A stretch of 60,742 nt of DNA, the filler included, from Hausera hauseri (lineage: Eukaryota), in the NCBI GenBank assembly GCA_046269625.1. It is 12 parts of 12 records of this genome, joined end to end, with 100 filler letters (N's around TTAATTAATTAA, not from the genome) between each part and the next. Parts side by side here need not be neighbours in the genome. Positions count along the whole stretch, not along the records: positions 41,129 to 45,522 come from JBJURY010603444.1; 11 more parts are not named here. One strand, written 5' to 3'. Below the pieces are notes generated by a model. The model made no database searches. It was given only the letters and a program-made list of their open reading frames with translations, and was not told where the DNA came from. Position 1 is the stretch's first letter. The number at the start of each line of letters is the position of its first letter. This document shows, one piece after another, positions 21,861 to 56,642 of the stretch. The position numbers and the translations under genes are program-made.

Positions 21861-21959
21861 GATTAAATCCACTGTTATTTTAGATTGATAAATCAACGGG
21901 AAACGTTAATACTTTATTAATGATCGTATGATAATCTTTGTTTTTAAAGGCTAAATGAG

Positions 21960-28903: not shown

Positions 28904-29026
28904 GGAATCTCCGACCGCGGACTCGCCTACACAACGTAATAAACTAGTCAAGTATTAAAGGTTCCGTGCGTTCGTGTTTTTTTTTTGTAACGACACGTGT
29001 GTGTTTTTCGTCGGCTTTCGGCGAAA

Positions 29027-29746
29027 ATGCTCTTGGTCGCAGCCTCAGTCGAATTTGCGGTCGTTTGTTGCGTGGCTCTACCAACGCCGGCTCCCGTGGT
29101 TCCGCAAACCACCGCCGCAACAATCTTCGCGACTCGAGAGTATGACGAGGCAGACAACAAACAGCTGACATCTACACCGGATCATACGATTGGCGATTTG
29201 TTAGATCGGTTAAATGTAACAACCGATCCGTTTACGCAAAGTTCGACTAACAAGCTCTACGATGACCAGATATCGTCAGATTCGGGTGGTCTCGCGGAAC
29301 CCGTAACAAAATTGACGATTAGGTGTCCGGATGAAAAAAAAGCAAGATTTGATGGTTTCACGTGGCTCTCACGCGACGAACCGAGTTACCGTTTGTATTA
29401 TATCAACCGACGGGGTACAGTGGTCCGCTACAGGAGCAGCGCCTCGCATCACGACAAGCTGAAAAACACATACGGTCTCACGCTCGCCGTAGACAACGCG
29501 TCGGCTCTTAATATAATAGGGAATAACTGTAATTACACGGGTTCATACGCGTGTCTAATGTACAACCCCACTAGACGCGAAACGTACACTTTTTATGTTA
29601 CAAACTGTACGGTCAAACCGACAACGACGCACGACGACGGTTTTACACACAATCGTATCGACACTTACGACGTGTTCTTGATTCTCTTTGTCTCGCTTTT
29701 AAGCGTGATCATCTGCTTTACTGCGTATCGCGTGTGTCGCATGTAA
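29027..29746 (+). CDS. Type I membrane glycoprotein with one Ig-like domain
   Basis: Signal peptide, Thr-rich stalk, LTIRC...FTW...ALNI..N.NYTGSYAC, N-glycosylation sequons, TM VFLILFVSLLSVIICFTAY and a very short tail. Confidence 0.8.
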   Translation: MLLVAASVEFAVVCCVALPTPAPVVPQTTAATIFATREYDEADNKQLTSTPDHTIGDLLDRLNVTTDPFTQSSTNKLYDDQISSDSGGLAEPVTKLTIRCPDEKKARFDGFTWLSRDEPSYRLYYINRRGTVVRYRSSASHHDKLKNTYGLTLAVDNASALNIIGNNCNYTGSYACLMYNPTRRETYTFYVTNCTVKPTTTHDDGFTHNRIDTYDVFLILFVSLLSVIICFTAYRVCRM

Positions 29747-30467: not shown

Positions 30468-31114
30468 TTAACAAACAAACACGACCATTAGGGTTAACGC
30501 CGTTACGACAACGGCAGAGTAAACCTCGGTGTTCCCGTTAGANNNNNNNNNNCGCGGAACTCATGTTCTTCGTTCCGCTGGCCCACGACGGCAGACCTGT
30601 AACACGCGTAGTATCCGTCGTGGTTACAGTTTCTGACGCGAATAACGAGAGACTTGTTTCTCGAGACGCTGTATCCTACGTTGTTTTTACTCTGCATTAT
30701 ATGTGCGTCCTGGTACACAGACACGACTCCGTTCGCGTCGACTCGGTACAACCCGGATTGCGTTTTCTGCAATACGCAGCACGACCCGGAGTGCGGTCTC
30801 CAGGGTGTACCCACATACCACGTGGTGGCACTGAAACGCTCGGGGTTGTGGTCGGGACAGTCTAATACCAGCGAGCCGACGTCCGGATCTGGACGGTTGG
30901 TTGTCCGACCCGTCGATACGTCCAACGTCGGCGACACCTTCGCGGGGACCCGCCGATCGGTGTAGATACCAGGTTGTCCGTATCCGTCCGCTAGTGAGAT
31001 GCTCGAATCGCGTTCGGGGTGCGGGGTCGTTGGCAGCACGAGTCCGCAATGAAGCGATGATAATGTCCAACATCCCAGCAGTAACCAACACAGCGTTGTC
31101 TCACGCGAGACCAT
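30468..31114 (-). CDS. Paralogous Ig-like glycoprotein with a hydrophobic C-terminus (contains a 10-N gap)
   Basis: Signal peptide and LVLDCPD...TTW...LYRV...SLVIRVRNCNHDGYYAC. After the gap another frame reads SNGNTEVYSAVVVTALTLMVVFVC*. Confidence 0.75.
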
Positions 31115-31627
31115 GTTGTCGCGTTCACCGAGATGTGTCTCGTTTACGGTTAAAAATGGGCTATATATATATATATATCGCAGCACATCTGACTGACGTT
31201 AAGCGCACCGACCGATCACGCACTTTTTATATCGCCCGACCGTGCAGCTTTTACCGGTTCCGACTAGGGGCCGAATGTATGAATTCAATAAAATACATCG
31301 ATCCAATCGTTTCTTTTTCTGTTTATTTATTTGTGTTTAAATGTATAACAGATCCCTCAAAGGGGACGCGTAGATGATGAGTTGTTATTGTGATAAACGT
31401 CGTGTACAGCCGCCTCGAGGAAATAAAAAAAAACCACGTTCGTCATGTCCAGTAACTTACCATTTGGGAGGACAGGGGTTGTTATTACCAATTGCGTTTT
31501 GCACAAATGACTCAAAAATAAACCCGTTCGTTGAAAAGTTAATGTGACTCTCACCGGATGCAGCACGCGACATTTGTGTACGAACACAGGCCTTAATAAA
31601 TGAAAAAAAAAGCACTAGATTCTTCGT

Positions 31628-31890
31628 AGGGACGCGTAAACAATAGACTTTATATATAAAAAAAATACAACGACGACACGCGTCGCGTAAACAGTAGACC
31701 CATAGCCGGGCGCCGTACGCGACGAAGGACCCGGCGACGCGTAAACGGTAGACCCATAGCCGGGCGCCGTACGCGACCACCGCGGGGACGCGTAAACAAA
31801 CAGGGCGCCACACGCGACGACCGCGGGGACGCGTAAACAATAGACTTTAAATAAAAACACAACGATGACACCCTTCGCGTAAACGGACCC
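31628..31890 (+). repeat. Direct-repeat array with six CGCGTAAAC cores
   Basis: Cores at 31633, 31684, 31738, 31789, 31830 and 31876. Confidence 0.92.
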
Positions 31891-32150
31891 TCGGCGCACC
31901 GGCGTACGTTCGGTTTTACATTTTTTTTTTGTTCCGACAGCGTGGACAGATTTTTTTTTTTTTTTTTCCCTCGACGANNNNNNNNNNNNNNNNNNNNNNN
32001 NNNNNNNNNNNNNNNNNNNNNTTAATTAATTAANNNNNNNNNNNNNNNNNNNNNNNNNNNNNNNNNNNNNNNNNNNNTCCTAAAACAAAGTATTGTTTGA
32101 AACTTGAACCAATTCTCTGTTTGCTGGTGGAATAACCCGATCTGTAGTTA

Positions 32151-33563
32151 TCAGGTTATTCCATCATTGATTCCATCTTGTGGTATCATCACCCTTAGTT
32201 CCCTCTCGGTGATTTTATGACGCTTAATACAACAGTTTTTGGCAATCAATCGACAAAACGCAATTAAGATTATGAGAGCAAATACTGACGTTCCAATAAT
32301 CGATGTTTATGACAACACTGTCCATTTAGTTAAATCTTCCATTTTGGCGGTAGTCGTAGTCTCATCTTCTGTTTTATCGGCGGTCAGTGGTTTTGTTACG
32401 ACAATCTCGTTCTAGGTTCGTATTGTGAACACTCTACCTTGTTTGTTCTCTGCACCCAATTCTATTATATAATCTGTTCTGGGTTTCAATCCGATACATT
32501 TGATTCCGTAACTGCCTTTTGGCAGTGTTACCTTCTGATTATCGTGTTATGTTCGGCAGCTTATTTCTACGTCGTATTTGAGTGTTTCCTCCACAATGAA
32601 CGTTATTTCGCATTCTTGTACCTGATATTTACAAGGATTATTTCTGGATCTTTGTGAGATAATTTGTTCGTTGTAGTGGTTTTGATGATTGCAGGAGTAG
32701 TAGACTTTGTTTTCGTATTTGTTGTCGTATCAAATGAATTCGACTTGATTGGATTTCTGAGTCGGTAGCTTCCTAAATAAATACTCGACTGGTTTGATCT
32801 GACTTCATATAAGTCTAACTGAATTCTATATTTATATTTCTGGGGTAACTTGCAACATTTCTTCGGTTGCTCCCCATTGATTTGGCAGTACTGTTGGCTG
32901 TAAGCTTGTATGTTTTCTTTCAGGAACCGGACTGAGATTACTCGACCGTTAATTCATTGTCCTTTTGTGTTTATTTGAACACAATTGTCCTTTGGATTTT
33001 CTATTATACTGGCTATATTTTTTAGCATCCGCTTTAGTGGGTCGATGGACTGGAGCATTTTGTTGGGTTTTATCCCATGGTGCTTGTTCCAAGCAGGGAT
33101 AACTAATTGAAATTGTGGTTTTATTTCGTAGATTTTAGAGTTTCGGTGAATGCAGTCGATAGGTAAGGTTATAGGTATGTCTGAAATCCATATTGCAACA
33201 TTGCGTTTGCTCTCCCGGCTCGAAATCACAATTTCTTGTTTCTTTTGTCATTATATGATCTAGGACAATTTGAAATATTCCAAAATTGTGGTGCGGTTTC
33301 TGTATTGTAAATCCAACGCATGTGGAGTTCGGCGAGTAATAATAAATTGTAACTGATTGTAACGACGTAATATTTTCTAGTCTTTTGATTTGTTCTATTG
33401 TCGCTATCTTTTCCATTTTATTAACCTCTGGTTTTGGTTCAATTTTCCATGCTCCGTATCCGTCGTGCCACTCTCTAGTTTTTGCTGTCGGCATGCAAGA
33501 AGCAATTAGCGATAAGGCTAAAACTATCAGCGCGTATAATATTGGCCTGGAGACAATTGACAA
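32151..33563 (-). pseudogene. Env-position FN3-like type I membrane protein, copy A
   Basis: Signal-like ILYALIVLALSLIASC, Cys-paired beta domains, GLKPRTDYIIELGAENKQG (FN3 signature), Thr-rich stalk, TM SIIGTSVFALIILIAFC and a KNCC tail. Confidence 0.85.
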
Positions 33564-36482
33564 ATCTTGTTTTCTCGTGATCTTAGATGGTAATGTTTAG
33601 CTGGTCTTATATCCGTTTTGACTACTCTTTGGACTGATACGACTTCCTCTTTTCCGTTTTTATTGACATAAACCGTAGTTGGTTTTGTACGAATGATTTC
33701 ATATGGTCCTCTTCCGGTACGTGTTAATCTTAAGGATGTACCTTTCTTCGCAACTGGGTAATGTATATAAACCCAATTTCCTTTTTTCAGATCATGAGGC
33801 TTAGTCTTTTTATCATATTGTTTTTCAAATTGTTCCCGGTGTTCGAGTGATAAGATTTTCGCAACTTCCCAACACTTTTGTAATCTTGTCTGTAAAACTT
33901 TCGCAAAGTTTTGCTCTAAATCTTCGAGATTCTTTTCGTACGGTGTCATATCTAGATTTGTCGGTAAGATTGCCTATCCTCCATACATCATAAAGAACGG
34001 TATAAATCCCGTTGCTGGATGTGGAGTAGTACTAATTGCGAACTGTGTTCCTTCTAGGAATTCGTCCCAATCTTTTTGGTCTTTTGCCACTACTGTTCAT
34101 AGTATGCGAATGACTGTTGCGTTCATCCGTTCAACCATTCCATTACATTGGGGATGATACGAGATTGTAGTTAAACGTTTGATTTCGAATATTTTTGTAA
34201 TTTTTTCAAATAATTCGCTTGTAAAGTTCCTTCCTCTGTCTGTTAGGACCTGTTCCGGTGGTCCGTATCTACAGATAATTTTTCTTACTACTGCATCGGC
34301 TAGTGTTTCCGCTTTTTGATCCAATAATGCTACCAGTTCGACAAAATGTGTCAATGGATCCGCGCATGTTATAATATATCTGTTGTTTTTGTGAGGTTTA
34401 GGTAAAGGTCCTACTATATCCATAGACATGGCCTGCATAAGTATATCTGGTACGTTTATTGGTTTTAGTTCTGCTACGTAGCCTTTCGTCTTCTTTTGTT
34501 TCGTTGCCCAAACTTCGCACGCTCCTACCCAATTCTTTACGTCAATATAGATACTTGGTCAGTAGTATTTATTCAATATTCTTTGCAATGTCTTCTTCCA
34601 AGACATATGTCCGGTTAAATACGAATCATGTTCGGCCATGAGTACCTCGGTGCGCAATTCTTTCGGAATAACTATTAATCTTCGTCCCTTTCGTTCATAA
34701 TACAGGATATTATCCTGGTTTGACGCGTGATATTTATGTCCGTTTTTCTGCAGGTGCCTTTTCAGTTGTCATCCTTTGGTCATTTCGCCGTTTTGTGCGA
34801 AATTAACAATTTGCTAAATAACTTTATCTTTGGCTTGCTGGGCTGTAATTTTAATTGTCTTATCCATTATTAGAGTTCGTTGTCGTTCGATCAGTTGTTC
34901 AAGTTGTGGCAATTTTGCTATAGTAATTGCGCTCGTTTTTGTCTTAAGCCTTTATAATGCGTCTTCGCCGACATGTTTATTTCCAGGTTTGTATTGGAAT
35001 TCAATGTTATATCGTGAGATTTCCTCAATCCAACGGTTTAATCTACATGTTGGATTATTAGCTCGTCCCTTCAATGTCGTGACTGCTTTGTGGTCGGTCA
35101 CTATTATAATCCTTTGCCCGCAGACATAGACATTAAAGTGTCGTAGTGCTTCCTTTACGGCTAACGTTTCTAATTCTGTAACAGAATAGTTTCCTCGGCC
35201 TTTTTAAGGAACGTCCACCATAAGCAATCGTGTGCTCTAATTCTTCATCTTCTCTTTTCTGCGCTAATTCGTATCCAATGCCTTCTTTGCTGGCATCTGT
35301 CTTGATTATGAAGGGTAAGTTAAAACCTGGATATCGTAAAACGGGTTCACTTGTTAATATCTTCTTCATCTCATCAAAAGCTTTATGTTCAACATCCGTT
35401 CATTTCCATTTAATTCCTTTATTAGGTAAGCGATATAAGGATGATTAATTTTTAAATTATTTGGTACGTAAGTTGCGTAATATCCGAATAATCCTAGCCA
35501 GTGTCTTAACTCTTTTTTATTCTGTGGTTCCATGCAATCTGATATTTTATTCAATAACATTTTATCTGCTTTCGATCCTCCTTCTCCAACTATATGGCCA
35601 AGTTAGGATACTGCATTCTGAGCCCATCTGCATTTCTTCGGATTCAACTTCAATCCGGCTTGTTCCAGTCTCATTAATGTGTGTTTGATATCCTTTAAGT
35701 GTTCCTTTTTGGTCCTTGACGCTATCGTTACGTCGTCTAAGTACGCAAAAGCATGATCCAGACCAATTAGCATTTTATTCATCATTCTCCTAAATGTGGC
35801 TGGTCCAGTAGTAATACCGAACCCCATGACATTAAATTCATAAACATCATCGTGTGTTTTAAATGCCCTCTTATATCGGTCTTCGTCCTCTATTTCCACT
35901 TGCCAATATCCGTATCTTAAGTCCAGAGTGGTAAACCATTTCGCCCTGAGAGTCGGCCTGAAGCCTCTTTGACCGACGGTAGTGGGAAGGAATCCTTCAT
36001 CATAAGACTATTCAAGGCTGCGTAATCAATACAAAATCGATGTTTCGTGGTACCTTTCTTCTTAACCATGAGGATTGGTGAATATCAAGATCTATAGCTG
36101 GGCCTAATTATATCTGCCTTAAGCATTTGTTCGACTTCTTTTGTTATTTCGGGCCTTAATGAATGAGACGGAGGGTACCATTTTGGCATCTTCTAGTCTT
36201 CTAAATCTATTTCCTCGTTTGACCCTGGCTTTTTCTTGAGTGGAATAGTTAGTTTTAATGCTTTCGCTCTACGGATATCTTCTTCGCCCTTAGCGATAAT
36301 CGATTTATATCGGCATAACAATTCGTATAATCGACAATAAGACTGAGGTGAAAACTTAGTTTCGACATGGGGCGAAAATTCGGCATACTTATAAGGCCTT
36401 TCTTCAATCGTTATTGACGATACTCTATACGTGTATCCTAAAGTAGTATAAGCATGGAGCCTGACAGGAGTTTGCGCGTTAT
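33527..36482 (-). mobile_element. Ty3/Gypsy pol (RT-RNase H-integrase), decayed, copy A
   Basis: FCIDY, GYWQV, YLDD, KTDASKEGIG, TDH, SMDIVGP, TDRGRNF, NGMVER and GPY in Gypsy order. Confidence 0.97.
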
Positions 36483-37133: not shown

Positions 37134-40100
37134 CTAATTTTTGTTTGTTTGTCTGTCCGTCTTTCTGACCTGACGTTCTGCGGTTCCAGTCGTAAATTTG
37201 TCATCCTCGATACGATCGTCAATTTCTTTCTGGTATAGGATTTCCATACGATTAATGAGGTAGACTTTAATTTCGTTTTTATATTCTCCATTTGTCTCTG
37301 CTAAAATAGAAATCGTGGCGAATTTTTTAAGGGGATTTGGAACCCCGTTGTAATCAAAAAATGTTGTTCTAAAGAGAACCGTTAACATTCCCAATTTGAT
37401 CAGCTGCTTTAGATCTGTCAACTCTTCTTTCTTTAGTAACTCAGCCTCTTCTTCAGCTTTTCGACGTTGCAATTTTACTTCTGTCTGAATTTTACGAAAC
37501 CTTTCTGCCACTTCTTTAGCTTTTCGACGGTTGTTGGAATTGGACCTTGAACCATAGTATTGATTTGACGACGTTATTTGTTTCTGATAACTTTTCAAAC
37601 TAGAACTTCTGGTTATACTCTCTTTTTGGGGACTCGACGATTTTTGTTGCCAGAGTAAATTGGTCATTTTATTCATCAACATGATCGTATCGACCCTACT
37701 CGACTGTGACACATTATTAACATCGGTAATTGTTTCGTCAGTTGCTGCCTTTCGGGACATTCTGTTAAGCATTTGTGAAAATTTCGAATGTAAATTTTCC
37801 TTATCCGCATGACCATAATTATCGTCATGTACTAATTCAGATGCTAATTCATGTACTAAGTCTCCGTCCAACTAACCAATTCCAAATTTCTTTTTCAATT
37901 TGGCTAATGTTGCTGCATGTAGTTTCTTTCGTTTTTCAATATAGCTTTTATCGTCGTTATCATCATCATCGTCTGGTACGTCACTGTTCGCTAGTCGTTT
38001 GTCTGATCCAGTTCGATACAAGTAACAAGTAATGTTCTTCGGTGAACTCTGTGAATTTCGATTTTTATCTGTCTTTGATATTCTTCTGGTTCGATGATTT
38101 GTCTTTTTGTTGTTTGTCTGTGAACTCAGAAGTAGCATGATTAATGTTTTTGATCGGTTCAACATTTCGATGAGATAAATACCAAATGCTTATACTGATT
38201 GAGTCGCATTTTGGGGTAACATTGGTCAATGAGGTAAATGTTGGAGTTGATGACTGTTGACGATGAGTATCCCTTTCGTCATATGATCGGGAACTTAATG
38301 TGTGATGCTGTGTCATTAATTTGTTAGGACAAATACGGTCGTCTTTTAATACCTTTAGTTGGACCATCATCTGATTTCAATACAGTTAAATTGCTCCCAT
38401 TTTGGTTGCAGAATTGGTTCTTGTTGTTGATCGTTCATAAATAATTTGTCTTCCAACTTCTCTTTTGCTTGATCATATAATCTGAGAATATCTCTCACTG
38501 TTGCATTACTACCTAATACTTGTACAACTGTCATTTCAAGCTGAAGTAGCTTTTCTTGTTCGTCGCTGAGTTCAATTTTCTCCTTTGTTTTGAGCATTTG
38601 AAAATGAATCAATAATGTAGTTATTTCTTCTTTCTTTTCATTCATCAAATTTAATTTGTCTGTCATCATTTCATTTTTGATTCAATCCATTTCACTACTG
38701 ATGTCCTCGACCCACTTGTTCTTTTAATACATTTTCAATTACATCTCTTTTACTCTCCAAACGAATTTCTACTTCAGTTTTCTTATTTCCTTTCCTCAAT
38801 CTCTGTTTATACATTTTCTCCACTTCTTCATTGAAATAATTTTCAATACTGTTATTTATTTCATTCTTTTTTGAAGCTAAAATTTCTTCTAATTTTCGTC
38901 CGTTTCAATCGCTCAACAGCCAAACTGTTTCCAACGGAAATACGATTTTTACTAAATTGTCTCAAGATTTCACTTCGATTATCAACGGGTAAAGTTTTTT
39001 GCATGTTTATTACATTATCAAGAACATCGCTTTGTGCATCTAAAAGATAATTTTCTTCTCTCTGCTGATCATCAATATCTGATTTGATTTCCTGTTTAGT
39101 TTTCATCAACCTTTGCTGCAATTCATATTCCTGGGACTTTTCATCTTGCAAAAGGTTCATATAAACATGAATGGATTGGCAAGGGGATTTCCCAATTTCT
39201 TTAGGGTCATACATAGAAAAATGTCGTTTATCAAAATCAGATCCGCTAAACGCTGTTTCCAATGTGTAACTATTGTTAATTTTAAATTGACTCCACATTA
39301 TTACACGGCCTGTCGACAATTCACTCTTCTGAACTTGAAATTGACGTCCAGTAAAAGAAAATGCCAATGGATTCTGCTTCTGCATTATCCGAGAAAACAG
39401 TTGATCTTTTATAAAGGAAGAAATCGTTTCCAAATTAATGACCGGATTCAGTTCCGTAACGTCCTCGGCATTCTGATATTGTGAGTAATTTCCGACAATT
39501 ACTCTATCTGGATTTAGCATTGACACGATTTTGAAAATAATCCTTTTGCGTAATCCCTTCGCAAAGGCACAATCATTGATTAAATACTGAATAAGACCCT
39601 TCATCATCCAACTGGAATTTGTTTCTGGATACTCTTGCGGTAATTACTGCTCCAAATTTTTTGTAATTCGGAACATCTTCACCGGTTACTGTAAGAACGA
39701 AACAGCCGTTGCAGATATTTGTTTCACAAAGAACATCTTGATTCATGATTGAGGAGTTGTTACTGGAAAGGAAAAAATTGAGATCATTCTTAAGGTCTGT
39801 AAAATTATATGGGTAACAATTTGCCAGATAACATATATCATAAGGAGAGGGAAACTCTATTTGAAACTCCGGTTGATAGTATGACGTTTTTCTGTTCAAT
39901 AAGGAACACTGTAACTTTGTCACATTATAAAAGTACCTTATATGATGTCCAATTCGAAACCAACCTTTGTTTTCTTTGTTGGCACAATGTTCGGAATACA
40001 AAAGCATTCTCATTCCTTCCATATACAGACTATTTGGCTTTAACAAGTTGATAATGATCAATTTGTACATTACATTCTTCAGCATATTTTGAATCCGAAA

Positions 40101-41028
40101 ATAAAAACATTGAGTATGTCTGTTCGTGTACATATTCCGTAATACTAACTCATATTTGATCTGTCTTATACGTCTCGCTTGACGCAAGTTACTGGATTCA
40201 AATCGTGACTCAAACACCAGACTAGGACAATCATTTTCTGGTTGACTAAACAATGCTGTTGTACGTGGGTTTGTTTTTGAGTCATAAACAATTTGCATGT
40301 TTCCATATCGCTGTGAATGAATGATTGTTGATGGGTGCTTAATTTCTTTCTCTGTCCATCGACGGATGTATAATGGGCTCCTCCTGATTACTAAAGAATC
40401 TTTTATGAGTTGGAGATGGATGTAGCGGGCTACTATTTTTAGGCCAAAATAAATCATGTTTATCTCGTACTATGCCATATTTATCTTTATACTGTCCATT
40501 TGGCAGAACTTCAAATTTGCTACCGTCAGCTAGTTTTCCATTTTTCAGTGCCTCATTGAAGCCATTCTTCGTAAATGAGTTGAACAGCAACTATTTTTCT
40601 TTCTGACTTAATGAACCGAAATTCTGCATGACATCGCAACCTGTTTTTGAAAAACTTAATTCTCAAAGTGGTTGCTCTTCATCATATTTGTAGCGTTTGA
40701 ATATAATTCCCGCACTGGCTGGCGATTTCGGTTCATAATGATTTCTTGACCAGCATTCAAACCCGTTCGTTCCAAGTTCCGAATATCGATCGCCGTCCAT
40801 CTGTATGAAGGGGATTTCTCTTCAAATTTATCATCGTTGTTGTTAAGTTGGTAGCCGATAACTTAATTCGGTCCCGTTCATTGAAATCAACACGGGCATT
40901 TAAATCCGTGTGTTTCATGCTCTGTTTTTCCCTTGCAATGCTTCTTCTTCTTGTCGTATTCTATCGCCTAGAGGTATATTCAAAACTTCTCGAACTCGAT
41001 GAGTAATTTCATTTTCAAGTTGCATTTT
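37134..41028 (-). pseudogene. Intronless cytosolic carboxypeptidase (CCP2/3, AGBL2/3, Nna1-like) pseudogene
   Basis: FESRFESSNL, YELVL, HTQCFYF, CYLANCYPY, ITARV, ETNSSWMMKG, MLNPD.VIVGNY, TGRV, NSYTLE. Many frameshifts; assignment of the coiled-coil tail below 38860 is less certain. Confidence 0.88.
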
Positions 41029-41173
41029 NNNNNNNNNNNNNNNNNNNNNNNNNNNNNNNNNNNNNNNNNNNNTTAATTAATTAANNNNNNNNNNNNNNNN
41101 NNNNNNNNNNNNNNNNNNNNNNNNNNNNAAACCAATTCTTTGTTTGATGACAGAATAACCTGATCTGTAATTG

Positions 41174-42579
41174 TCAGGTTATTTTATCATATGGGTCTAC
41201 AGGGTACTCTAATTCCCTTAGTTCCCATTCTAAGTTTTTATGACACTTAGAACAAGAGTTTTTGGTGACTAGCCGAAAAATCGCAATTAATATAATGAGA
41301 ACAAATTCTGACAATACCGTGATAGATACGATTGGTAGTGTAGTTAGTCCCATCGTTGCTTGTGTGGTGACTGGGGTTGTGATCTGTTCATCTATATCCT
41401 CATATATATGCGATTCTGCACGAATCTCATCTAAAGTATGCAGTGTAGCGGACTGATTTTGCTTATTCTCTGCATACACTTGTACTATATATTCGGTTTG
41501 TGCTTTTAATAAATTGCACTCTGTTTCAAAAGTATTTTTAAATAGCGTCACAACTTGATTATTATACGTTGTCCGTCAACTTATGTATATGTTGTAATTT
41601 TGTTTCTATTCCACGAAGAACACAATCTTATACCGATATGCCGAATATTTATTATGGATACTACCTAATTCTCTTTTAGGCACAGTGACCGACGTAACGG
41701 TTGACGTAATGATACTAATTTGAGTAGCTGGTCTTCTAGTGGTTGCCTCTACTGTAATTTTCCTAATTCTATTTCCTGGATAGTAAGTTCTAAATGGTAT
41801 ACTTGATTTATTCGGCCTTACTTCATATAGATCGAATCTTATGTTTAATTCTTGGTTTACGGGTATTTTACAGCATGGGTTTTGCACGCCTTCTTGAATA
41901 GAAAAATATTTTATTTTCGGAGTCGGTCCAACTGTTGCTTCAAACGTGATACTAATTTCCTGACTAAAACTTACTCTTGTTCTAGCGTGTACTTGAATGC
42001 ATTGTTTATCCTTATTCATAGAGATTCTCTGGATATTTTCGTCTAATATTCTTATATCCCGGTCAGTAGATCGTAGTATTTCATTCAGTTTTACTCCATG
42101 ATGTCTGCTCCATGCAGGAATAACTAATTGAGAACGTGGCTTTGTTTCAATATAAACTTCGGATGAATCTGGTAAGTATAAACGATAGGTGAGGTTATAC
42201 GTTTGTCCAAAATCTATGTCGCAGCACTGCATATTTTCTTCAAGCTCAAAATCACAATTTTTCGTAGCTTTTGTGTTTAAGTCAAATAAGACAATTTGAA
42301 ACCTTCCAAAATCGTGATGCCGTTTCCAAGTCTTAAATCCAACGCATACGGAGTTTGGCGAATAATAATGGATTGTCATTGATTGTAATAATTTGGTGTC
42401 TTCTTGTTTTTCAACTTCTTCGGCTGTTGGCTTCTTTTCCGTTTTTCATCCACTCTTCCGAATTCCGTATACATCTCCCAACGTAGATTCATCGTGCCAC
42501 CATTGCGCTTGTATTCGTGGGATGTAGGAGGCAATTAACGATAATAATAAGACTATCTGAACATACGATATTGGTCTGG
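41174..42579 (-). pseudogene. Env-position FN3-like type I membrane protein, copy B, in frame with integrase
   Basis: IVLLLSLIAS signal-like helix, YYSPNSVCVGF...CC...TYNLTYRL, LKAQTEYIVQVYAENK and TM LPIVSITVLSEFVLIILIAIF. Confidence 0.88.
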
Positions 42580-45522
42580 CAATTATTGAGGAAGTCTTTA
42601 TTTCTCGTGAGCGTAATTTGTTACGTTTATTGGGCCGTATCTCTGTCTTAACAACTCTTTGTACTGATATGACTTCTTCCTTTCAATTTTTGTTAATATA
42701 TACTGTAGTTGGCGTAACCTTCGTAACTTTGTGCGGTCCTCTGCCTGTACGAGTAAATTTTAGTGAATTACCCTCTTTAGCGACTGGGTAATGCACATAA
42801 ACCCAATTTCCTTGCTCTATATCATGCAGTTTCGCTTTCTTATCATATTGCTTCTTAAATTGCTCTTGATATTTTTGAGGTAGTTCTTTACAGATTTCTC
42901 AACACTTCTGCAACCGCGTTTGTAACACTTCTGCAAAATTATGTTATAAATCTTCACTATTAACTGTGTATGGCGTCAATCCTAAGTCCGTGGGCAACAC
43001 GGCTTCACGTCCATACATCATAAAAAATGGCATAAATCACATTGCTGGATGTGGCGTGGTTTTAATTGCAAATTGAGTTCCTTCTAAAAATTCGTCCCAA
43101 TCTTTTTGATCTTTCGCTACTACTGTTGATAATATACGTATGACGGCATCATTCATCAGTTCGACCATTCCTTTACACACAGGATGATATGCAATGGTCG
43201 TTAATCGTTCGATTTCAAATATTTTGGAAATCTTCTTAAAAAGTTCCCTTGTAAAATTTCTTCCTCGATCTGTGAGTATCTGGTCTGGAGGTCCGTATCG
43301 ACAAATAATTCTTCTTACAACTGCTTTCGCAAAGGTTTCGGCTTTCTGATCTACCAATGGTATCAATTCGACAAAATGAGTTAGGCGGTCGATGCATGTT
43401 AAGATATACTTACTGTTCTTATGAGTCATAGGAAGAGGTCCTACGATATCCATCGACATGGCCTGCATGGGTCCATCGGGTACGTCGATTGGTTTTAACT
43501 CGACCATGTAGTTTTTTGTCTTTTTCTGTTTAGTTGCGCACACTTTACAGGCATTTATCCAATTTTTCACATCAATATAAATACTGGGCCAAAAGTATTT
43601 ATTCATTATTCTTTCTAATGTCTTCTTCCAGGACATATGTCCGGCTAAATACGAATCATGTTCTGACATCAATACTTCGGTTCATAAACCCTTTGGGATA
43701 ACTATCAGCTTCTTTCCTTTTCGTTCGTAATGTAAAATGTCTCCTTTATTTCCGTCGTTTAAGACGCAGTATTTGTGTCCGTGTCTGTGTAAATGTTTCT
43801 TTAACTGTCGCCCTCTTGGTATGACATCCTTTTTAGCAAATTCTATATTCTGCTGGATAATCTTATCCTTTCTTTGTTCTGTTGAAATTTTAATGGCCTT
43901 ATCTATCGTTAACGCGCGTTGACGGTCTACTATTTCCTCAAGTTTACTTTTCTTCATTACTGTGATTGCGTTTGTTTTAGTCTTTAATCTCGATAGTGCA
44001 TCGACGTCTACATGTTTGTCCCCTGGCTTATACTGAAACTCAATTTTATATCTGGAGATTTCTTCTATCCATCTGTTTAATTGACACGTCGGGTTATTTG
44101 TTCGATCCTTTAAAGTTGTAACGGCCTTGTAGTCAGTGAAAATTATAATTTTCTGACCGTAAACATAAACGTTGAAATGACACAGTGATTCTTTTTGCAG
44201 CTAGAGTTTCCAGTTCGGTAACAAAATAGTTTTTCTTGGCTTTCTTCAAGGAACGTCCTCCATAAGCAATTGAGTGTTCTAATTCTTCGTTTTCTCTTTT
44301 TTGCGCTAGTTCATAACCGATGCCTTCCTTACTGGCGTCTGTCTTGATTATAAACGGTAAGCTAAAATCTGGATATCGCAAAACGGGTTCGCTTGTTAAT
44401 ATCTTCTTCAGCTCATCAAAATCTTTCTGCTCCACGTCTGTCCATTTCCATTTAATCCCTTTTTAAGCACAAAATATTGAGATGCATTAATTTTTGAATT
44501 ATCTAGTACGTAGGTTGCGTAATATCCGCATAATTCTAGCCAGTGTCTTAACTCTTTCTGATTTTGTGGCTCCATGCAATCCGATATTTTGTTCAATAAC
44601 GACTTATCTGGTTTCGATCCTCATTCTTCAACTATATGACCTAGGTAGGACATGCAATTTTGAGCCTCTTTGCATTTCTTCGGATTTAACTTCAATACGG
44701 CTTGTTTCAATCTCATCAGCGTGTGTTCAATATCCTTTAAGTGTTCTTCTTTTGTTCTCGATGCTATCATCACGTCATCTAATTACGCAAAGGCATGATC
44801 CAATCCCATTAACATTTTATTCATCATTCTGGTAAATATGGCTTGTCCGGTAGTAATACCGAACGGCATGACGTTGAATTCATTAACACAGTCGTGTGTC
44901 TTGAATGCCGTTTTATAGCGGTCCTCGTCCTCAGTCTCCACTTGCCAATATCCGGATTGTAAGTCCAGAGTAGTAAACCATTTTGCTCCTGAGAGTCTAT
45001 CCAGGGCCTTTTTTACTGATGGTAATGGAAAAAAATTCTTCATCATAAGATTATTTAGAGCTCTGTAATCAATACAAAATCGGTGCTTCGTAGTGCGTTT
45101 TTTTTAACCATAAGGATAGGCGAGTACTAGGATTTGTAACCGGGCCTAATTATATCGGCCTTAAGCATTCGTTTGACTTCCTTTGTTATCTCGGGTCTTA
45201 GCGAATGTGGTGGAGGATAACATTTCGGCATCTTCTGATCCTCTAGATCTATTTCTTCATTTGAATCAGGTTTTTTCTTAAGTGGAATAGTCAGTTTTAA
45301 CGCTTCCGCCCTACCAATGTCTTCTTCATCCTTAGCAATAATCGATTTATAGCGGCATAATAATTCATAAAATCGACACTAAGATACTAGGGAGAATTTA
45401 ATTTCAACATGAGGCGGAAATTCGGCATACTTATAAGGCTTTTCTTCAAAAGTTATTGAGGATACTCTATACGTATCTCCTAGAGTAGTGTAAGCATGAA
45501 GTTTTATAGGACTTGGTGCATT
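42580..45522 (-). mobile_element. Ty3/Gypsy pol, decayed, copy B (same family as copy A)
   Basis: TLDLQSGYWQV, MPFG, KTDASKEGIG, H..AGH..C..C zinc finger, SMDIVGP and TDRGRNF, collinear with copy A. Confidence 0.97.
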
Positions 45523-45622: not shown

Positions 45623-48600
45623 CTTTATGACAAAACTAAATGTAGATAGGTATGATATCTGTCGTTCCTGCCTCGGTGATGGCTGTTTTAGTGACATGAT
45701 GTGCCGCAGAGGTTTGTGGTCCGTTTGGATAATAAATGGACGAGAGAGGAGGAAATGCTTGAAATTTTTTACTGCCAGAATTATGGCTATTAGCTCACGA
45801 TCAAATGTTGAATATCGGTTTTCTGGTTTTGTGAGTTTTCGAGAGTAAAATTCCAAAGGTTCATCGACGTCGTTGGAAATCTGGTGCAGTATTGCACCAG
45901 TAGATGTGGTACAGGCATCGGTGGTAAGTATCAGCTCCGCGTCGGGTTTTGGATATGCCAGTATTTCTACTGTTCTTAGGCCTTCACGTAAGTGATCAAA
46001 TTTGGTAACTAAATCGGAAGTCCACTGGATTAACTGTTTTTTCCTTCCAGATGAGAGGTGTGCGAAAGGTGCTGTAAGCTCCGATCAATGCGGTACGTAT
46101 TTATGGACGAAATGTAGTGTGCCAAGAAAACTCTTCATATCTGTAGTGGTCGTTGGTAGTATTACATTTTTCAATTGCTGTAGTCTATCAGGTTGCGAAG
46201 AGTGGCCGTGAGGAATGATTATGTGGCCTAAGAAATTGACACGTTTCTGAAAGAAGTTGCACTTGGAGAAGTTAACTTGTAAGTTGCTATGATGTAATCT
46301 GTGAAAAATGATTCGGAGATGTTCGTGGTGTTTTTTGACGGAGTTGGAGGCAACTAATATGTCATCGATTTACGGATGAGCAAAATCAAGGCCTGAGAGA
46401 ACGGTGTCACTGTGGCGTTAAAAGTTTTGGGCTGCGTTACGTAAACCGAGTGGCATAAAGATGTTTTCGTAAAGGCCAAATGGAGTGTTGACAGCAGTTT
46501 TTGAATGTCATTGGGTGCAACGGGAATTTGATGGTAGGATTTGTGCACATCTATTGTGGAATAGATATTGGTGTTGTTAAGACTGTGCAGGATATCCGTT
46601 ATGAGCGGTAATGGGTAAGAATCCATGATGTTAGATTGTTTATTTGACGGTAGTCGCCACATGTTCGAAAAGTACCGTCTTTCTGATACTACTTGTAATG
46701 ATGAAGCCCATGGTGATTTTGACCTCCGAATGATACCAGATTTTTCGAGTTCGATAAACTCAAATTCCACGGCTTTTCGTCTACGAGGAGATAATGGTCT
46801 CACCTTTTGCCTGATAGGTCTTTGGTGTTGGGCGACAATGTGGTAATAAGTTGTTGATGGGGGCTTAAAACTAGAGTCATTTTTGAGTATACGAGAACAA
46901 GAAGAAATGATTTAGGATTTGAGATTGAAATCTAGTGATAAAAGTGATTGAGGCATAATATCAGAGGAGGCGGTGACTGTAATTGGCGAAGAACGAACGA
47001 CTTCGCCGCCATCAACGTTCGGTTTAATCGGTTGTTTTAAAATCGACTTTGATATTTGAAACGTAATTGAGAAAATAGATAAACTACTAGATTTATCGTT
47101 ATCAACCGAAGAGAAATTTGCCAAATTCACATGTGAGTTCGCAGACAAAGTGCCTGTTGAGCTTTAGGATAGACAATTGTTAACGTTCACGACGGAGTCT
47201 CTACATAGCAAACAGCCATACTTGCAGGCAACTAGCAGGTCGTGTGCGGCCAAAAAATCTGAGCCGATTATTGGCGATTTAATATTGGCCACGTGGAATT
47301 TCCAGACAAACTTGCCTGCTAAGTTTGAAAATGTAAAAAAAGTTCTGTGGTACCTGCGATTCGCAAAAGTTGACAGCTGGCAGTGAAAAGCGGAGGAGAA
47401 GAAATTGCATTGGGTGTAGGGACAACGGACAAAGGTAGAAGTGAAAAGACAGCTCCTGAATCAATAAGAAAATCGATATTTGGAGCATTTATAGTGAATA
47501 GTGTAGCTTTTAACAGAATAACTGTGGAGGCGGTGTTAAGACGGCCAGAAGACTGAGCGGTATTGCCTATGCCAGAATGTGCCATGACATCTGGCAGCGT
47601 TTTTAGTTTTTTGAAGATTGTGAAGGAAAAGAAAATGAATGATAAGAAGAAGAAGGAGAAGAAGAAGATGAAGAAAAACTGAAGTTAGTTTTGTAATGTT
47701 TACATCCCGTAACACACGATCTGACTAAAGATTCAAATTTTGTATGATAAATGCAAATATGGCTGTCCACCGCAAAACACTCGTCATAAAATTTACAGCC
47801 TAAGAGATATTTCTCTGCATTTCTGCGAAATTTATTGTGATAAAAATAAATCATTTGTCCACCCAGGGATTTAGAACGAAATAAGTTCCTCTAGTAGCTA
47901 CGCTCACGCGATGCACGGGTCTCAACTCACCGAGACATAGATTGATTACTTAGCTGGGCAGTGATTGCTGAAACTGAGAGTTGTAGAGTATCGTATTGTT
48001 TCTGCATTAATTGTAGTTGCTGTGCGAAAACAGTCGTGTCTATGTGCGATGGGGTGTGCGTGGTTGCTGCTGCTACGGGTTGTGAGTTGTTAGTTTGTAA
48101 AATTTCGAAACTTTTATCAGCCAATAGGGCACGTTTTTCAATCGCTGTCGAGTCATCAACGACAATAAGGAGAGCTCTGATTGAAGTGGGCAAGGAGGAA
48201 AGGAAATAACGGCAAAGCAAGTCTGCATTGTTGGTGGGGGTAATGCCAAGAGCATTTAGGTGTAAAATAGAGGTCTGCAGAAAGTCAGAAGACTTTTGAC
48301 TGCCTATAACATGTTCGTTAAAGTATTTATGTATTATATTATCAATCGATGGATCGGTAATATGAAGAACAGACTCATAAAGCATGTCACATGGTGTTGA
48401 AGAAGTAAGGATATCAGCAAGTTTATTAATTTGGTGCTTGATATTTGCTTGGAAAAAGTAACAAGCTGTTGGCGTGCAAGAAAGAATCGGTAATATGATT
48501 GGCTTTAAGCCATTGTGCGGCTTAAATTAGTTTTATCGAGGAAAAACTCTGTGCAAGGAAAGTTAGGAAAGCAGATTGTGTAGAGTCAGCAGGACGACGA

Positions 48601-48990
48601 CCAGATCTTGTTTTAGAGGAATTTTTGGCAGAAGAATCAGGGTCCAAACCACCCGGATGTGAAAGTGAAGGGTGAGATGAATGATCGGAGAAGCGAAGAA
48701 AGTGAGTCAGACGAATGTAGCACAGAACCCTGGTGCGATAAATAAAAGTCGAAAGTGTGTAGGAAAGAGGATAGAGACATATAGAGGGTGTAAGCAATGT
48801 CCGTGTTACTAGTGTGCATGGTAGAAATATATGTATTATTTTTAAAAACAAAAAAGAAAAGGGTTTAAGAGTGATGTTGGATGCGTGTTGTGGCGCACGT
48901 ATCACGGATGCGTCCAGATTTCCGACCAGATGATGTTCGGGCCGCATAGCCGTGGGGACAGTCGCCAAAACCGATTTCTGATGGCTAGTG
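45623..48990 (-). mobile_element. Gypsy (CsRn1-like) gag-protease-RT-RNase H, decayed
   Basis: Gag with CxYHxxF...C..GC motifs, FLIDSGA protease, SKSPWAS/YHQIPV RT, TTDA, YSTFDREL, TDHKPL. The 5' boundary is approximate. Confidence 0.93.
47540..47612 (-). promoter_or_regulatory. Predicted gag-pol -1 ribosomal frameshift site
   Basis: A AAA AAC directly before the gag TAA, then a GCCAGA...TCTGGC stem. Confidence 0.65.
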
Positions 48991-50426
48991 TTCATCGTAG
49001 ACTGGTCGAGTGCTCCGTATATCAATAAGTTTAGACAGTCGTGGATGTTCAAGTAACCACACCTTATAATTCGAATAACCATAGAAAGAATCGTATAACA
49101 TGCATCATCATTAATAAAAGGAATATAGTCACAACTATCGCCAATTCGTAAATGACTTTCCACTTCAAACGGTGCCACTGAATCCGAATAGCGATCGTCA
49201 TTATCGATAATCATAAAGGTGTCTTGTTGAATTTTCTACAATTCCGAATCCATCTTTTTCAACAAATCACAAACTTCATCCAAATTCGGTGATCGTTTCA
49301 TTCCGGATTGTGGCAATATAGGTAATAGAAAATAAGTATTCGGTCATGAATGCGTCGGTGCTGGTGACGATGATGTTTTTCGAAATATGGAATTTGGTAA
49401 CGTGTTACAGTAGTCATCGGCAACCAAACTGGTTTCATCTTCGGAAAGTGTTTGTTTCTTGTTGGAAAGTCCGGATATGAAGAGTGAGGCAACGGCATGA
49501 CTCGTTGATATTGGATGGTTTGATATGAAATCGTCGTAGGAATCATTGGGTATAATCGTACGAGTACAAGAATGAACATCAGATGGAATATCCAAATCAC
49601 AAATGGCTGCCAAATTGCGATTCAAAGTGGTGTTCGTATCAACAAATAATTGCTCTGAAGAGTTTTGGCGATACTTTTATGCATAGTTTTATATATAAGC
49701 TTTTCTTCAATTTAATATGGAGTATTAGTCGTTTGTTTATTGTTGTTTCTAATCGGCATACATAATGTTGGATTTAATGAGAAATTGGTCGGAATGCGTT
49801 TCACAAAATTCCGATTTGTCTAATAATTCACTATCAGAAGTTGTTACATTACTGTCCAATGTAAAATCCCTTTCAAAGTCTTGAAGCAATACAAATATTG
49901 GATGGTACGGTTACAAATAAATAACCATTTGTGTCATTGCGTTTTCCAGTTTGGTAGTGATCAGATTCTATGGGAAAATTACTCTGCTTTACGACATTAT
50001 CGAAGCGATGAATAGAGGTAGTACTTCTCGTTGTTGTAATCATTATCTACATCATTCTGATTTACATATTCATGAAAAATATTTTCCACGTTTTTATTGC
50101 ATATTTGAAGCAGACTACTATATGATTCATAAACAAACAATTTACGGGAGGAATTACTATCCGTTGTTATTTTGTAATTACTACTACATTTTNNNNNNNN
50201 NNNNNNNNNNNNNNNNNNNNNNNNNNNNNNNNNNNNTTAATTAATTAANNNNNNNNNNNNNNNNNNNNNNNNNNNNNNNNNNNNNNNNNNNNTTAATTTA
50301 TTAGTATTCCTTCTAGTTAATTTGGGAAACCATTCTCCTGTATCCGTAGAACCTAAGTATCTGTATATTCACACAATTCCTTGACTACGCGCTGTAAATC
50401 CTCGGTACATGTGAATGATTTCCCTC

Positions 50427-51464
50427 TCAAATGCTTCTTTGGATGTCGGAAGAGATAGTAGTCACTGGGCACGAGGTCAGGATTATAAGGAGGGTGCTTA
50501 AGCCAACCTGATCAATTCTGGCCTGAGAAATGCCCGTTGTGTAAAGAAGGGCATTGCCATGCAAAAACCACGGCTGCGTTCTTGCGTGCCTTCTCTTCTT
50601 CTTGGATGTTGCTACAAGGTCGCTGTAGTACGCGGCGTTGATCCTGACTGATTTGTTAGCGAAGCCCATATGCACAACGCCTTTACTGCCACAGAAAATG
50701 GAAAACATGAGCATCCGCCGCTGGGAAGTCCCTGATATCAACTTGATGGACGGCTTCTCCCCGGATAATTTCCACTCAGCAGAGTCCCTCTTGAACTCAG
50801 AGATATACGTGGATAGTGGGGTCTCATCCTCTGTGAGAATATTCCACAGGAACTTGTCCCCATGCTGCTTCCAAATGCTAATGTTGTTTTCACAGGCGAC
50901 GCGACGCGACGATTTTCCATCATTTCCCCACTGAGGAAGAGAGGCACGAATCGTGAACACAATTTTTTCACCCCTAAAGCCGACAGTCGTGCATGTACAC
51001 TTCCCACGCTGATGTTGACAGCTGTGAATAAGGCGTGAATGCTGATTCTTCGCTCCTCCTGAACCATTTTCAGCAATTCTTCGTCCACATTGTCCGAAAT
51101 TTCTTGCGGTCGGCCCCATCTGTCATAATCAAAAACTGATGTGCGACCACCTCTGAATGCATTTACCCAGTTCTTCACAGTTGATAAAGATGGAGCATCC
51201 TTCTGATAAGTAGACTGCAAAAACTCGTGAATTTCGCTGCTGATTTTCCTTTGCAAAACGAAGAATTTTATCAAGCTTCGATATTCTATCGGTGGTATCA
51301 TGACTTTGACAATTTTTAAAACTCTTGCGTTACAGAGCAATGACAGAGCAAAACAAACTTAATTTTCTTCACCTATACTAATACAATTACTTGTAAATTA
51401 AAAATGACTAAGTTACTATTTTTAATTCTACCTTAGGCCAGGGACTTATTGAGCGTAACGCGTA
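50427..51464 (-). mobile_element. Mariner (irritans/Himar-like) transposon, frameshifted, with 5' TIR
   Basis: YRSLIKF...APSLSTVKNW..F..GR...GRP, RFVPLFL, TEDET. TIR at ~51435-51462 reads CGCGTTACGCTCAATAAGTCCCTGGCCT next to TA. Confidence 0.92.
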
Positions 51465-54410: not shown

Positions 54411-55535
54411 ACGCATCGACGCCGAGACAGTAGCCAACGCCTTCGTAAATACTTGGTTAACCCGCTATGGCTCACCCAAACATATCGCCACCGACCAAGG
54501 AGCTCAGTTTGAGTCAGCTTTTTTCAAAGCTTTAGTAAAAACCTTAGGAATCACACACGTTCATAGATCACCTTACCACCCCCAATCAAACGGCTTAATC
54601 GAACGTTTTCACAGAACGCTGAAAGTGTCTTTAAAAATCTTAGCCGACACCAATCCAAACTGGCTACCCATCCTTCCATTAATCCTCTTGGGTTGGAGAA
54701 ATACCCCGTCAACAGCAACTGGCTGTTCTCCAGCACAAGCTTTGTTTGGAACATCGATCCGAGCACTGTTCGATGTTGCAGAAGGTGAAGGAACACCTAC
54801 CGACCAGAATATTCACGCAGCAAGACAACATTTTATAGACATAGATAATGACAAATTTTGCAGTGTTAAACCAAGAAAAGACATTCCTACCAAAGAAACT
54901 GTACGAAGCAAAGTTCGTCTGAGTACGTAACCCATCGCAACACTCTTTTCAACCAGCGTACATTGGACCTCACAAGCTCATCGAATTGCATTCACATAAC
55001 GCTAAAATACTTCGCGATGGAAAGGAAGTAGTCATCCACGTCTCAAACGTGAAACCAGCCTTGTTTATCCCAGACGACGCAGAGAAAACCACTAATGAAA
55101 ATAAAACCCTTAATGGCCCATCTTTATTACACGATCTATTCAACCTGGCACCATCAGACTCCCCAAGACAAGTACTAATGCAAAATAACAGCCAGCCCAG
55201 TCACTACCCAAAGCCACATGTAAGGGAAATAAGTGAGAAAATCCCCAACCTCTATGAGTGTACAAATAACGATACAATGTCGCCTTTCCTACCGAACATT
55301 CACACACACGACATAACAAACGGAGCCAGAAATGCTCCAACGCAAAGCGCTCAAAATACGCTACCCTCAGGAAGCTCACCAAACGAACTACCAGCTGTCA
55401 CCATAAAAGCACGCAAAACAGTACAGTTTAAACCATGTAGTCAGGCAAAGTACCCCTCGGGTAGAATCAGGACAACTAACACCTAGGGTCTAAACAGCCG
55501 CTATATATAAATAACCAACTTTTCGCAGGGGGTTA
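54411..55535 (+). mobile_element. Gypsy (CsRn1-like) upstream tandem copy: integrase end and PPT
   Basis: TDQGAQFES, YHPQSNGLIERFHR, YIGP; PPT CAGGGGGTTA at 55526-55535. Confidence 0.93.
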
Positions 55536-56040
55536 TGTTGCGCCTAAAACAAGTGGATTTCCAAACACGGATCTCTTTAACGACATTGTATAAAATAAAT
55601 TTCATAAATACATAATTAAATATTTACAACTTCAGTAAATCCTTAATTCGTATTTTTATTTTTATAAAGACACGGCAAACAGTATTAATGCGTGGGAGAA
55701 ACAGGGTAAGGATCGTAATTACAAAAAATAATAAAATAACGTGGCGGTTTTAAAAGAAAAAAAATAATTTTTTTGTTTAAATAAATGGTTTTTTGGCTGC
55801 TTTAACAAATTAAAAAGTTTGACTTTTGACATGCTGTTAAACCTTTTTTATCCGAATATTTTTATCCTCATGGTATTAATCGACACGGGATTGCTGAAGG
55901 AGAACGAACATCATCTGATCGGAAACGAGCACTCTAAGAGTATGCACAACTGCAAAAAGGCGATAACCCCGACTATCGATGCGATTTCGGTCATGACTAC
56001 TGCGTCCACAGCGAAACAATTAAATACCAAAAGCGCAATA
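55536..56040 (+). repeat. LTR shared between tandem Gypsy copies
   Basis: Lies between PPT and PBS, with inverted termini TGTTGCGC ... GCGCAATA. Confidence 0.85.
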
Positions 56041-56041
56041 A

Positions 56042-56072
56042 TGGTATCAGAAGTGGGATTTTAACCCACGCC
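56042..56072 (+). promoter_or_regulatory. Primer-binding site complementary to the tRNA-Leu(CAA) 3' end
   Basis: TGGTATCAGAAGTGGGATTTTAACCCACGCC versus the expected complement TGGTGTCAGAAGTGGGATTCGAACCCACGC. Confidence 0.8.
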
Positions 56073-56642
56073 AGGAGCCGAATGTCACTGATCCCGAATA
56101 TCCTGAAGACGATCAAGGTAATACTCTGTTTCCCCACAATTTTCTGTTTGCCAATGATTTCTGTAGAGTACTTTAGTATTTTAAACCTAAACTATGAGTA
56201 CTATACATATGTCATAATTTTAGTAGCCAGAATATTTATTTATTTCTATTTTTATTCACAAAATACGTTAGTAAATATTCTTTTTGTAGCATATATATTT
56301 TCAATTGTAGAACTAATAAAAAAATACTCCAACCGTTTTTATGTACAATGTCAGCGAGTATGTCGTCTCTGGAATTTTATTAAGGATTCACAAATCGAGT
56401 AAAAGTATCGAAACCCCTAAATTAGAAAGAAATAAGCTCACCATCCTCTGCAAAACTAACGAACAAATTTTTTCCCTACAATTTCTTAAAAGCAAACGAA
56501 CTCGAAACTTGCACAAGGCTATAGCCCAAAAATTAGACGTTAATAGCAACAATTTTACCTCCATTTAAACGGCCTTGTAGTCCTCTCTGATAATAAACTT
56601 CTTTCCGGCTGTACCATTTTCAGATCAACAGGTATCTTATCA

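Follow-up and report, generated by a model that had tools for sequence, protein, structure and literature searches.

The Gypsy element and its reading frame

The window, i.e., the whole stretch of DNA analysed here, comprises 60,742 nucleotides of Hausera hauseri (assembly GCA_046269625.1) and consists of 12 short contigs joined with N spacers. Other contigs of the window hold a polB fragment, mariner-type transposase sequence and a TRAF-type MATH stretch, which point to an animal source, most likely an invertebrate. The contig at 41129-45522 (JBJURY010603444.1) carries on its minus strand a Ty3/Gypsy retrotransposon, termed copy 1, in which the pol gene is followed in the same frame by an open reading frame (ORF3) for a putative membrane protein with predicted fibronectin type III (FN3)-like domains. 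Copy 1 is a decayed member of a many-copy family. A second copy (copy 2), which the earlier note on this DNA overlooked though it lies in the same window, is more decayed. The features are listed below along the window; P0003 denotes an intact relative of ORF3 that is discussed in the next section.

44783-45160, minus strand: reverse transcriptase (RT), N-terminal part (Pfam RVT_1, E 2.6e-18; translation)
44133-44462, minus strand: ribonuclease H (RNase H; Pfam RT_RNaseH_2, E 4.1e-27)
42599-43741, minus strand: integrase with H2C2 zinc finger, catalytic core and C-terminal domain (Integrase_H2C2, E 1.5e-17; rve, E 6.6e-13)
42566-42655, minus strand: junction of the basic integrase tail with ORF3 (9 Lys/Arg and 2 Asp/Glu in 30 residues)
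42506-42586, minus strand: signal-peptide-like internal segment, predicted cut after PRIQA (hydropathy; -3/-1 pattern in 3 of 3 sequences)
42113-42385, minus strand: FN3-like domain 1 (C..C..CC), approximate bounds (P0003 model, fold searches)
41771-42055, minus strand: FN3-like domain 2, an internal repeat of domain 1 (P0003 model, fold searches, repeat alignment)
41675-41752, minus strand: Thr/Ser-rich linker, predicted to be disordered (pLDDT below 50 at P0003 residues 266-325; alignment)
41426-41659, minus strand: FN3-like domain 3, with two point stops in copy 1 (VIA-align)
41336-41425, minus strand: Thr-rich juxtamembrane stalk (alignment, P0003 model)
41270-41335, minus strand: single transmembrane helix (Kyte-Doolittle 19-residue mean 2.77; helix in the model)
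41177-41269, minus strand: short cytoplasmic tail (alignment)
41155-41182, minus strand: hairpin over the ORF3 stop at 41174-41176 (fold z -3.5)
32078-36482, minus strand: copy 2, same family (RT, RNase H, integrase, ORF3), about 75% identical (tblastn of P0003)

The earlier note had described the ORFs of copy 1 as sharing one frame interrupted only by point stops, and this is borne out by the translation. A single minus-strand frame extends from 44200 to the stop at 41174-41176 over 1,008 codons, passing from RNase H through integrase into the 478-codon ORF3, with eight internal stops (first bases 43684, 43039, 42946, 42901, 42685, 42448, 41608 and 41578) and no frameshift. This continuity is far beyond chance because the two alternative frames of the same stretch hold 75 and 83 stops. 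One of the eight stops (42683-42685) falls between the integrase tail and the signal-like helix, and copy 2 has a sense codon at that place. Hydropathy over the 1,008 residues reveals two hydrophobic segments only, the signal-like helix and the C-terminal transmembrane segment. The nearest in-frame ATG upstream of the first of them lies at 43018, 151 codons away, in agreement with the earlier remark that no ATG precedes the helix; the junction peptide quoted with that remark matches the translation exactly.

Copies 1 and 2 are 75% identical over 3,463 aligned bases, and copy 2 shows a one-base offset at about 33564 as well as two further frame changes within ORF3. The comparison of substitution rates between copies that the earlier note had proposed gave a ratio of nonsynonymous to synonymous differences (pN/pS) of 0.48 for ORF3 (bootstrap 0.41-0.55, 424 codons), the synonymous sites being almost saturated; for integrase, pN is 0.136 and pS 0.723. 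By this measure, ORF3 is under purifying selection between the two window copies. In two public sequencing runs, X1 and X2, related contigs were found over 30 of the 30 bins of copy 1 in each. The records aligned to copy 1 number 15,201 of 15,501,002 in X1 and 1,162 of 9,551,390 in X2, most of them less than 95% alike, and the share of sampled words present is 0.34 and 0.06, respectively. The contig alignment threshold of 80% identity introduces a bias toward close kin of copy 1, and we read the aligned contigs as many diverged copies of the element, not as a copy-number figure. ORF3 is almost certainly a real gene of the element, because it combines purifying selection, coverage in two runs and an intact relative in P0003.

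The affiliation of the element follows from its Pol domains, whose order is RT, RNase H and integrase, with the Pfam profiles RVT_1, RT_RNaseH_2, Integrase_H2C2 and rve in that sequence. RT extends to about 44490, and its region in copy 1 contains stops and frameshifts; gag and protease lie past the contig end. Ty3-G Gag-Pol is the best PDB match to the integrase region (E 3e-28), and the Pol domains match Gypsy-type profiles and Ty3 rather than the BEL/Pao-type pol of Atlas-type Belpaoviridae. The integrase is 74% identical between the two copies and ends in LRSRE; its C-terminal domain holds what we take to be a GPY/F-like motif. Searches with the locus found no relatives in viral, metagenome and prokaryote collections.

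Both element contigs begin just upstream of RT and stop 45-75 nucleotides past the ORF3 stop. Their start is at a near-identical homologous base, and their ends (41129-45522 and 32078-36482) fall within about 30 nucleotides of each other. Such matching ends suggest that the assembly breaks, on either side, at conserved repeats.

Predicted structure and relatives of ORF3

Among 1.84 billion representatives, two proteins match ORF3, namely P0003 (intact, 479 amino acids, E 3e-71) and P0004 (189 amino acids), both of which are unnamed singletons from contigs of 4,939 and 16,242 nucleotides. P0003 is 34% identical to the window ORF3 over 481 columns (E 3e-80) and has the same layout. No cellular homolog of ORF3 was found at E 0.001 among these representatives. 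An alignment search returned P0003 as the sole match (1 of 8,000), and word-indexed homolog searches with the window ORF3, P0002, returned 0 of 3,569 and 0 of 3,906 candidates of near or longer lengths; these blank searches are weak evidence on fused forms.

The structural model of P0003, based on a six-row alignment, shows three beta domains, a disordered linker rich in Thr, and a stalk leading to a transmembrane helix, with a mean pLDDT of 57, domain blocks mostly at 60-83 and a pTM of 0.34. A single-sequence fold of P0002 was unusable (pLDDT 35). Domain 2 repeats domain 1 (26% over 65 amino acids, E 1e-6), and both have the C..C..CC pattern. The fold search of the ectodomain suggested in the earlier note was made with Foldseek and placed fibronectin FN3 10-12 first (E 1.7e-9), with contactin, gp130 and Tie2 also among the tandem FN3 arrays at the top; nearly all matches listed are FN3 arrays, with alignments that are 7-13% identical. 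In the viral fold library, the matches were phage and algal-virus proteins rich in FN3/immunoglobulin (Ig) domains, none stronger than E 7e-6. VIA-align superimposed all three domains on FN3 or Ig-like chains with Z 7-9; against FN3 or FN3-like chains, the values are Z 7-8 and a root-mean-square deviation (rmsd) of about 3 Å over 70-91 residues. For domain 3, the values against such chains are Z 7.0-9.1 and rmsd 2.3-3.5 Å over 70-83 residues, and a weak profile match to Tie2 FN3 (E 0.017) was also observed.

The best Pfam fn3 score is 13 bits against the gathering score of 25 (best E 0.12), a weak match being present in two of the six alignment rows, and no Pfam family was found for P0002 at E 0.1. 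Atlas database searches with P0003 gave best scores of 0.88 and 0.83, fn3 families included, which serve as leads only. A PDB sequence match of P0002 to flavivirus NS3 helicase (E 0.06 or worse) was rejected as chance.

The model and the fold searches indicate that ORF3 is very probably an FN3 type I membrane protein, the ectodomain of which, about 390 amino acids long, is modelled as three FN3-like repeats. The earlier note had proposed two Cys-paired beta domains followed by one FN3 domain; the beta domains and the FN3 assignment stand in the model, while the division does not, all three domains being FN3-like, and the FN3 domain falls short of the Pfam cut-off. Two points weigh against the assignment: the model has a basis of six rows and a pTM of 0.34, and single-domain Z values of 7-9 are middling, near the range of common sandwiches.

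In all three sequences compared, the predicted signal site has Pro at -5 and a small residue at -1, which we take to follow the signal-peptidase rule. A membrane-proximal Cys with basic residues is present in the tail of 4 of 4 sequences, a terminal YxxI in 3 of 4 and the IT end in 4 of 4; the Cys is presumably a palmitoylation site and YxxI presumably an endocytosis signal. ORF3 is devoid of the marks of an F-type env, because neither P0002 nor P0003 has an R-x-[KR]-R site or a third hydrophobic segment that could act as fusion peptide, the signal and transmembrane segments being the only two. The earlier note had staked its reading on the ectodomain not belonging to a known env family, and the fold searches agree, with no F, gB or class II fusogen fold among the matches listed, which does not formally exclude them.

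The Pol-ORF3 junction and accounts of ORF3 function

The junction at 42566-42655 contains neither a stop nor an ATG in either window copy. The rough chance that a required ATG was lost in both is 0.1-2.5% at about 5-6% decay per site. Synonymous changes between copies 1 and 2 reach LRSRE in the Pol frame and restart a few codons further on in the ORF3 frame. A programmed -1 frameshift at the junction was rejected, as both copies are without a canonical -1 slippery site there. Two bridging contigs, one from each sequencing run, cross the junction with at least 31 letters on each side (two among 16 of the 16,509 pieces); they contain no gaps and are 81% and 87% alike. No indel near 42594 was present among the best 12 of 32 indel rows, and three of the four DNA sequences that span the junction are in the same register.

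A number of observations weigh against a fusion of Pol and ORF3. Copy 2 is shifted by one base at the junction, where it is also the most distant of the DNA sequences (210 of 321 columns identical). This offset plausibly arose through decay, because copy 2 holds other frameshifts. The 80% threshold favours kin of copy 1 among the bridging contigs, and these contigs were judged by gaps and identity and may have stops or ATGs inside; the substitution rows behind that comparison are 40 of 1,750 and include three of the eight stops of copy 1. The N-terminus of P0003, MLDDSMGNNMARP, bears no likeness to the integrase tail and supplies a Met immediately ahead of the signal peptide, at a position occupied by Ile or Val in the window copies; moreover, P0003 is known as a protein alone, with its link to a Gypsy pol unproven. 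A YAG triplet lies at 42578 and at 33549, exactly where likeness to P0003 starts in both copies, and could be a splice acceptor. According to PMC12992720, env of Metaviridae is typically spliced.

On this evidence, Pol and ORF3 are probably fused in the copy 1 subfamily. The in-frame arrangement proposed in the earlier note is upheld for copy 1 and the two gap-free contigs; the offset of copy 2 and the Met of P0003 weigh against it, and the YAG triplet leaves room for a spliced message. A fusion in this subfamily is no proof for the whole family, and the arrangement may differ between subfamilies.

For active elements of the subfamily, the chances seem evenly balanced that ORF3 was made as the tail of Pol, cut free at the internal signal peptide and used for cell-surface attachment rather than fusion; the attachment role taken by itself falls slightly short of that. 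From the sequence features we infer both release by signal peptidase and a receptor or adhesin role. A ribosome finishing integrase would meet no stop and would continue into ORF3, after which the basic integrase tail and the hydrophobic helix would act as an internal signal. Cleavage after PRIQA would fall to signal peptidase, and a second cut on the cytosolic side, by the protease of the element or by signal peptide peptidase, would release integrase. The ORF3 protein would then reach the surface, be palmitoylated on the tail Cys and be recycled through YxxI, and might help particles or particle-laden cells to bind a neighbouring cell, possibly of the germline.

The strongest competing account treats ORF3 as a separate gene, translated either from a subgenomic RNA that arises by splicing or from an ATG of ORF3 itself, with the in-frame join being confined to one subfamily or a side effect, and with most ORF3 protein not cut from Pol. 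We consider it unlikely. The position of YAG at the start of P0003 likeness, the Met of P0003 and the loss of register in copy 2 just upstream of YAG all agree with it. A Pol-tail product would, moreover, be scarce if Pol is made by frameshifting. Splicing is also the norm for comparable env and ORF3 genes (PMC12992720, PMC5408684). However, copy 1 has no pyrimidine tract ahead of the YAG at 42578, the triplet is perhaps a mere reflection of Ala/Ser-Arg codons, and the two gap-free junctions come from two runs. Pol would run into ORF3 with or without a spliced RNA, because the register of copy 1 has no stop at the join. It is likely that the copy 1 subfamily made a Pol-ORF3 polyprotein, perhaps alongside a spliced message.

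The fold matches also allow ORF3 to be viewed as a decoy or dominant-negative receptor, which appears less probable still; by binding a cytokine or partner receptor of the host, it would dampen defence in cells expressing the element. The matches include the ectodomains of gp130, IFNAR, IL-20R2 and Tie2, Cys residues are paired in domains 1 and 2, and the tail, poor in signalling features, has 30 residues, features in which ORF3 presumably resembles short-tailed inhibitory cytokine receptors. Nevertheless, these matches are no better than those to fibronectin, contactin and NCAM, the alignment shows nothing like a WSXWS motif, and no cellular homolog was found among the representatives searched.

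The 3' end of ORF3 bears on a further account. The hairpin over the stop has an equivalent in copy 2 at 32132-32159 (fold z -4.6), and shuffles as stable as the hairpin were observed in 1 of 200 cases for copy 1 and 0 of 200 for copy 2. A CARYYA hexamer, the tobacco mosaic virus read-through consensus (PMC2754532), comes right after the stop of copy 1. It follows 12 of the 6,573 stop triplets in the window and, among the 252 on that contig strand, this one alone; the stop context of copy 2 matches five of the six letters. Summed depth along the contig peaks in the bin with the ORF3 stop, on a par with the RT core. These observations could reflect ORF3 as the attachment subunit of a two-part envelope, with read-through of its stop into a downstream partner, possibly a fusogen, encoded past the contig end. 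Two further observations point in the same direction: all four ORF3 sequences end at one and the same residue, and the frame stays open for 15 codons to the contig end in copy 1 and, in the homologous frame of copy 2, for 23 codons. We regard this account as improbable: the CARYYA context was a post hoc observation, a second stop is present at this place in copy 2, and the ORF3 stop is enclosed by the stem instead of preceding it. With an off-frame stop rate of 0.08 per codon, open stretches as short as these will often arise by chance. The start of a long terminal repeat (LTR) or another cis element would explain the high depth and the contig breaks equally well; hairpin, hexamer and depth together fit read-through, an LTR edge or another cis signal alike. 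A miRNA-like Rfam match (E 0.91) was dismissed as chance.

That ORF3 is a functionless fragment of a host receptor captured by chance is hardly credible, even though FN3 receptors are common among host genes and pN/pS of ORF3 exceeds that of integrase, for it is largely refuted by a pN/pS well under 1 across saturated divergence, and there stand against it the intact 479-amino-acid relative with the same layout, the presence of the whole ORF3 in two runs and the failure to find a host gene.

Known envelope genes and other features of the window

The animal Gypsy elements with F- or gB-type ENV are the closest point of comparison. Like copy 1, they carry behind a Ty3/Gypsy pol an env-position glycoprotein composed of signal peptide, ectodomain, transmembrane segment and tail, and they differ from it in that copy 1 has three predicted FN3 sandwiches, no furin site or fusion peptide, and an ORF in frame with Pol (PMC13524379). 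The survey of 1,512 elements in that paper gives ENV solely of the F and gB types, and its main text has no occurrence of fibronectin, FN3 or polyprotein; its supplements could list such elements. The survey could have missed an FN3 type because its search was seeded with env baits. The Atlas virus, in which a single Gag-Pol-Env chain spans 2,828 residues, and the nematode Belpaoviridae share with copy 1 a surface glycoprotein in frame at the end of the Pol polyprotein (PMC9094657). This is in contrast to their affiliation and cargo, Atlas being a BEL/Pao element with phlebovirus-like GN-GC and a class II fusogen, and copy 1 a Ty3/Gypsy element with FN3-like cargo. The bdelloid elements Vesta, Juno and TelKA also have a family-specific ORF after pol, some with transmembrane segments and with no known viral source (PMC5408684). 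The ORF3s described in the portions of that paper drawn on are F-like env, transmembrane ORFs of 210-230 amino acids, GDSL esterases and DEDDy exonucleases, with no FN3 array among them, and they are typically separate spliced units. Cellular FN3-array proteins (fibronectin, contactins, gp130 and Tie2) resemble ORF3 in predicted fold and type I topology, and differ in the 7-13% Foldseek identity and in that ORF3 is carried by a retroelement.

The literature search, with Repbase/Dfam and most subscription journals outside its coverage, found no retrotransposon-borne FN3 membrane ORF, in keeping with the statement of the earlier note that the arrangement is not recognised from described elements. 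The cargo in the env position of this Gypsy family is real and apparently undescribed. What is new in it is the predicted FN3 surface protein, together with the likely expression as a polyprotein; elements with additional ORFs behind integrase are already known. So far, the surface proteins of animal Gypsy elements have been classed as viral fusogens, F or gB in type, that the elements borrowed. If the env slot holds a conserved receptor-like FN3 protein, this would mean either a cell-to-cell route based on adhesion and not on fusion or a retrotransposon with a receptor mimic, and an in-frame Pol-glycoprotein would bring to Gypsy a strategy so far documented for nematode BEL/Pao. A bolder proposal, which we put forward tentatively and rate as doubtful, is that animal Gypsy elements have, in addition to the F and gB types, a third kind of env-position surface protein, namely a non-fusogenic FN3-array adhesin or receptor mimic that is cut from Pol at an internal signal peptide, serves spread by cell contact and possibly has a read-through partner. 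Surveys baited with env would miss an FN3 family, and the intact natural P0003 makes its function directly testable.

Other decayed Gypsy elements in the window, at 21460-26299, 45623-50192 and 54411-60742, belong to a different family with Ser/Pro-rich integrase tails; tblastn gave no match to the FN3 ORF in them. Two contigs among these elements hold tandem pieces. The contig at 26400-31977 is GC-richer (about 47%), gene-dense and viral in look, with two unknown ORFs and a 54-nucleotide GC-rich tandem repeat at 31680-31777. Two further ORFs of this contig, at 28991-29746 on the plus strand and 30503-31198 on the minus strand, have signal-like starts and Thr-rich stretches, no Pfam match at E 0.1, and Cys...Trp...YxC patterns that we take to be Ig-like.

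An intron-less Dcp1-like decapping ORF (464-1126, minus strand, E 2.7e-6) shares its contig with a decayed organellar/viral-type DNA polymerase B (3286-4881, plus strand, E 1.9e-19), and the two may belong to a Polinton-like element that carries a decapping cofactor. A divergent single-exon TBP-like ORF (20296-20859, plus strand, Pfam TBP E 1.1e-9) may be of viral or Polinton-like origin. Two long cytosolic carboxypeptidase-like frames at 38861-40469 on the minus strand lack evident introns and may be a retrocopy. We also note mariner-type transposase pieces, a TRAF-type MATH exon and an ankyrin ORF, identified with Pfam (50427-51358, 13982-14407 and 21404-21838, all on the minus strand).

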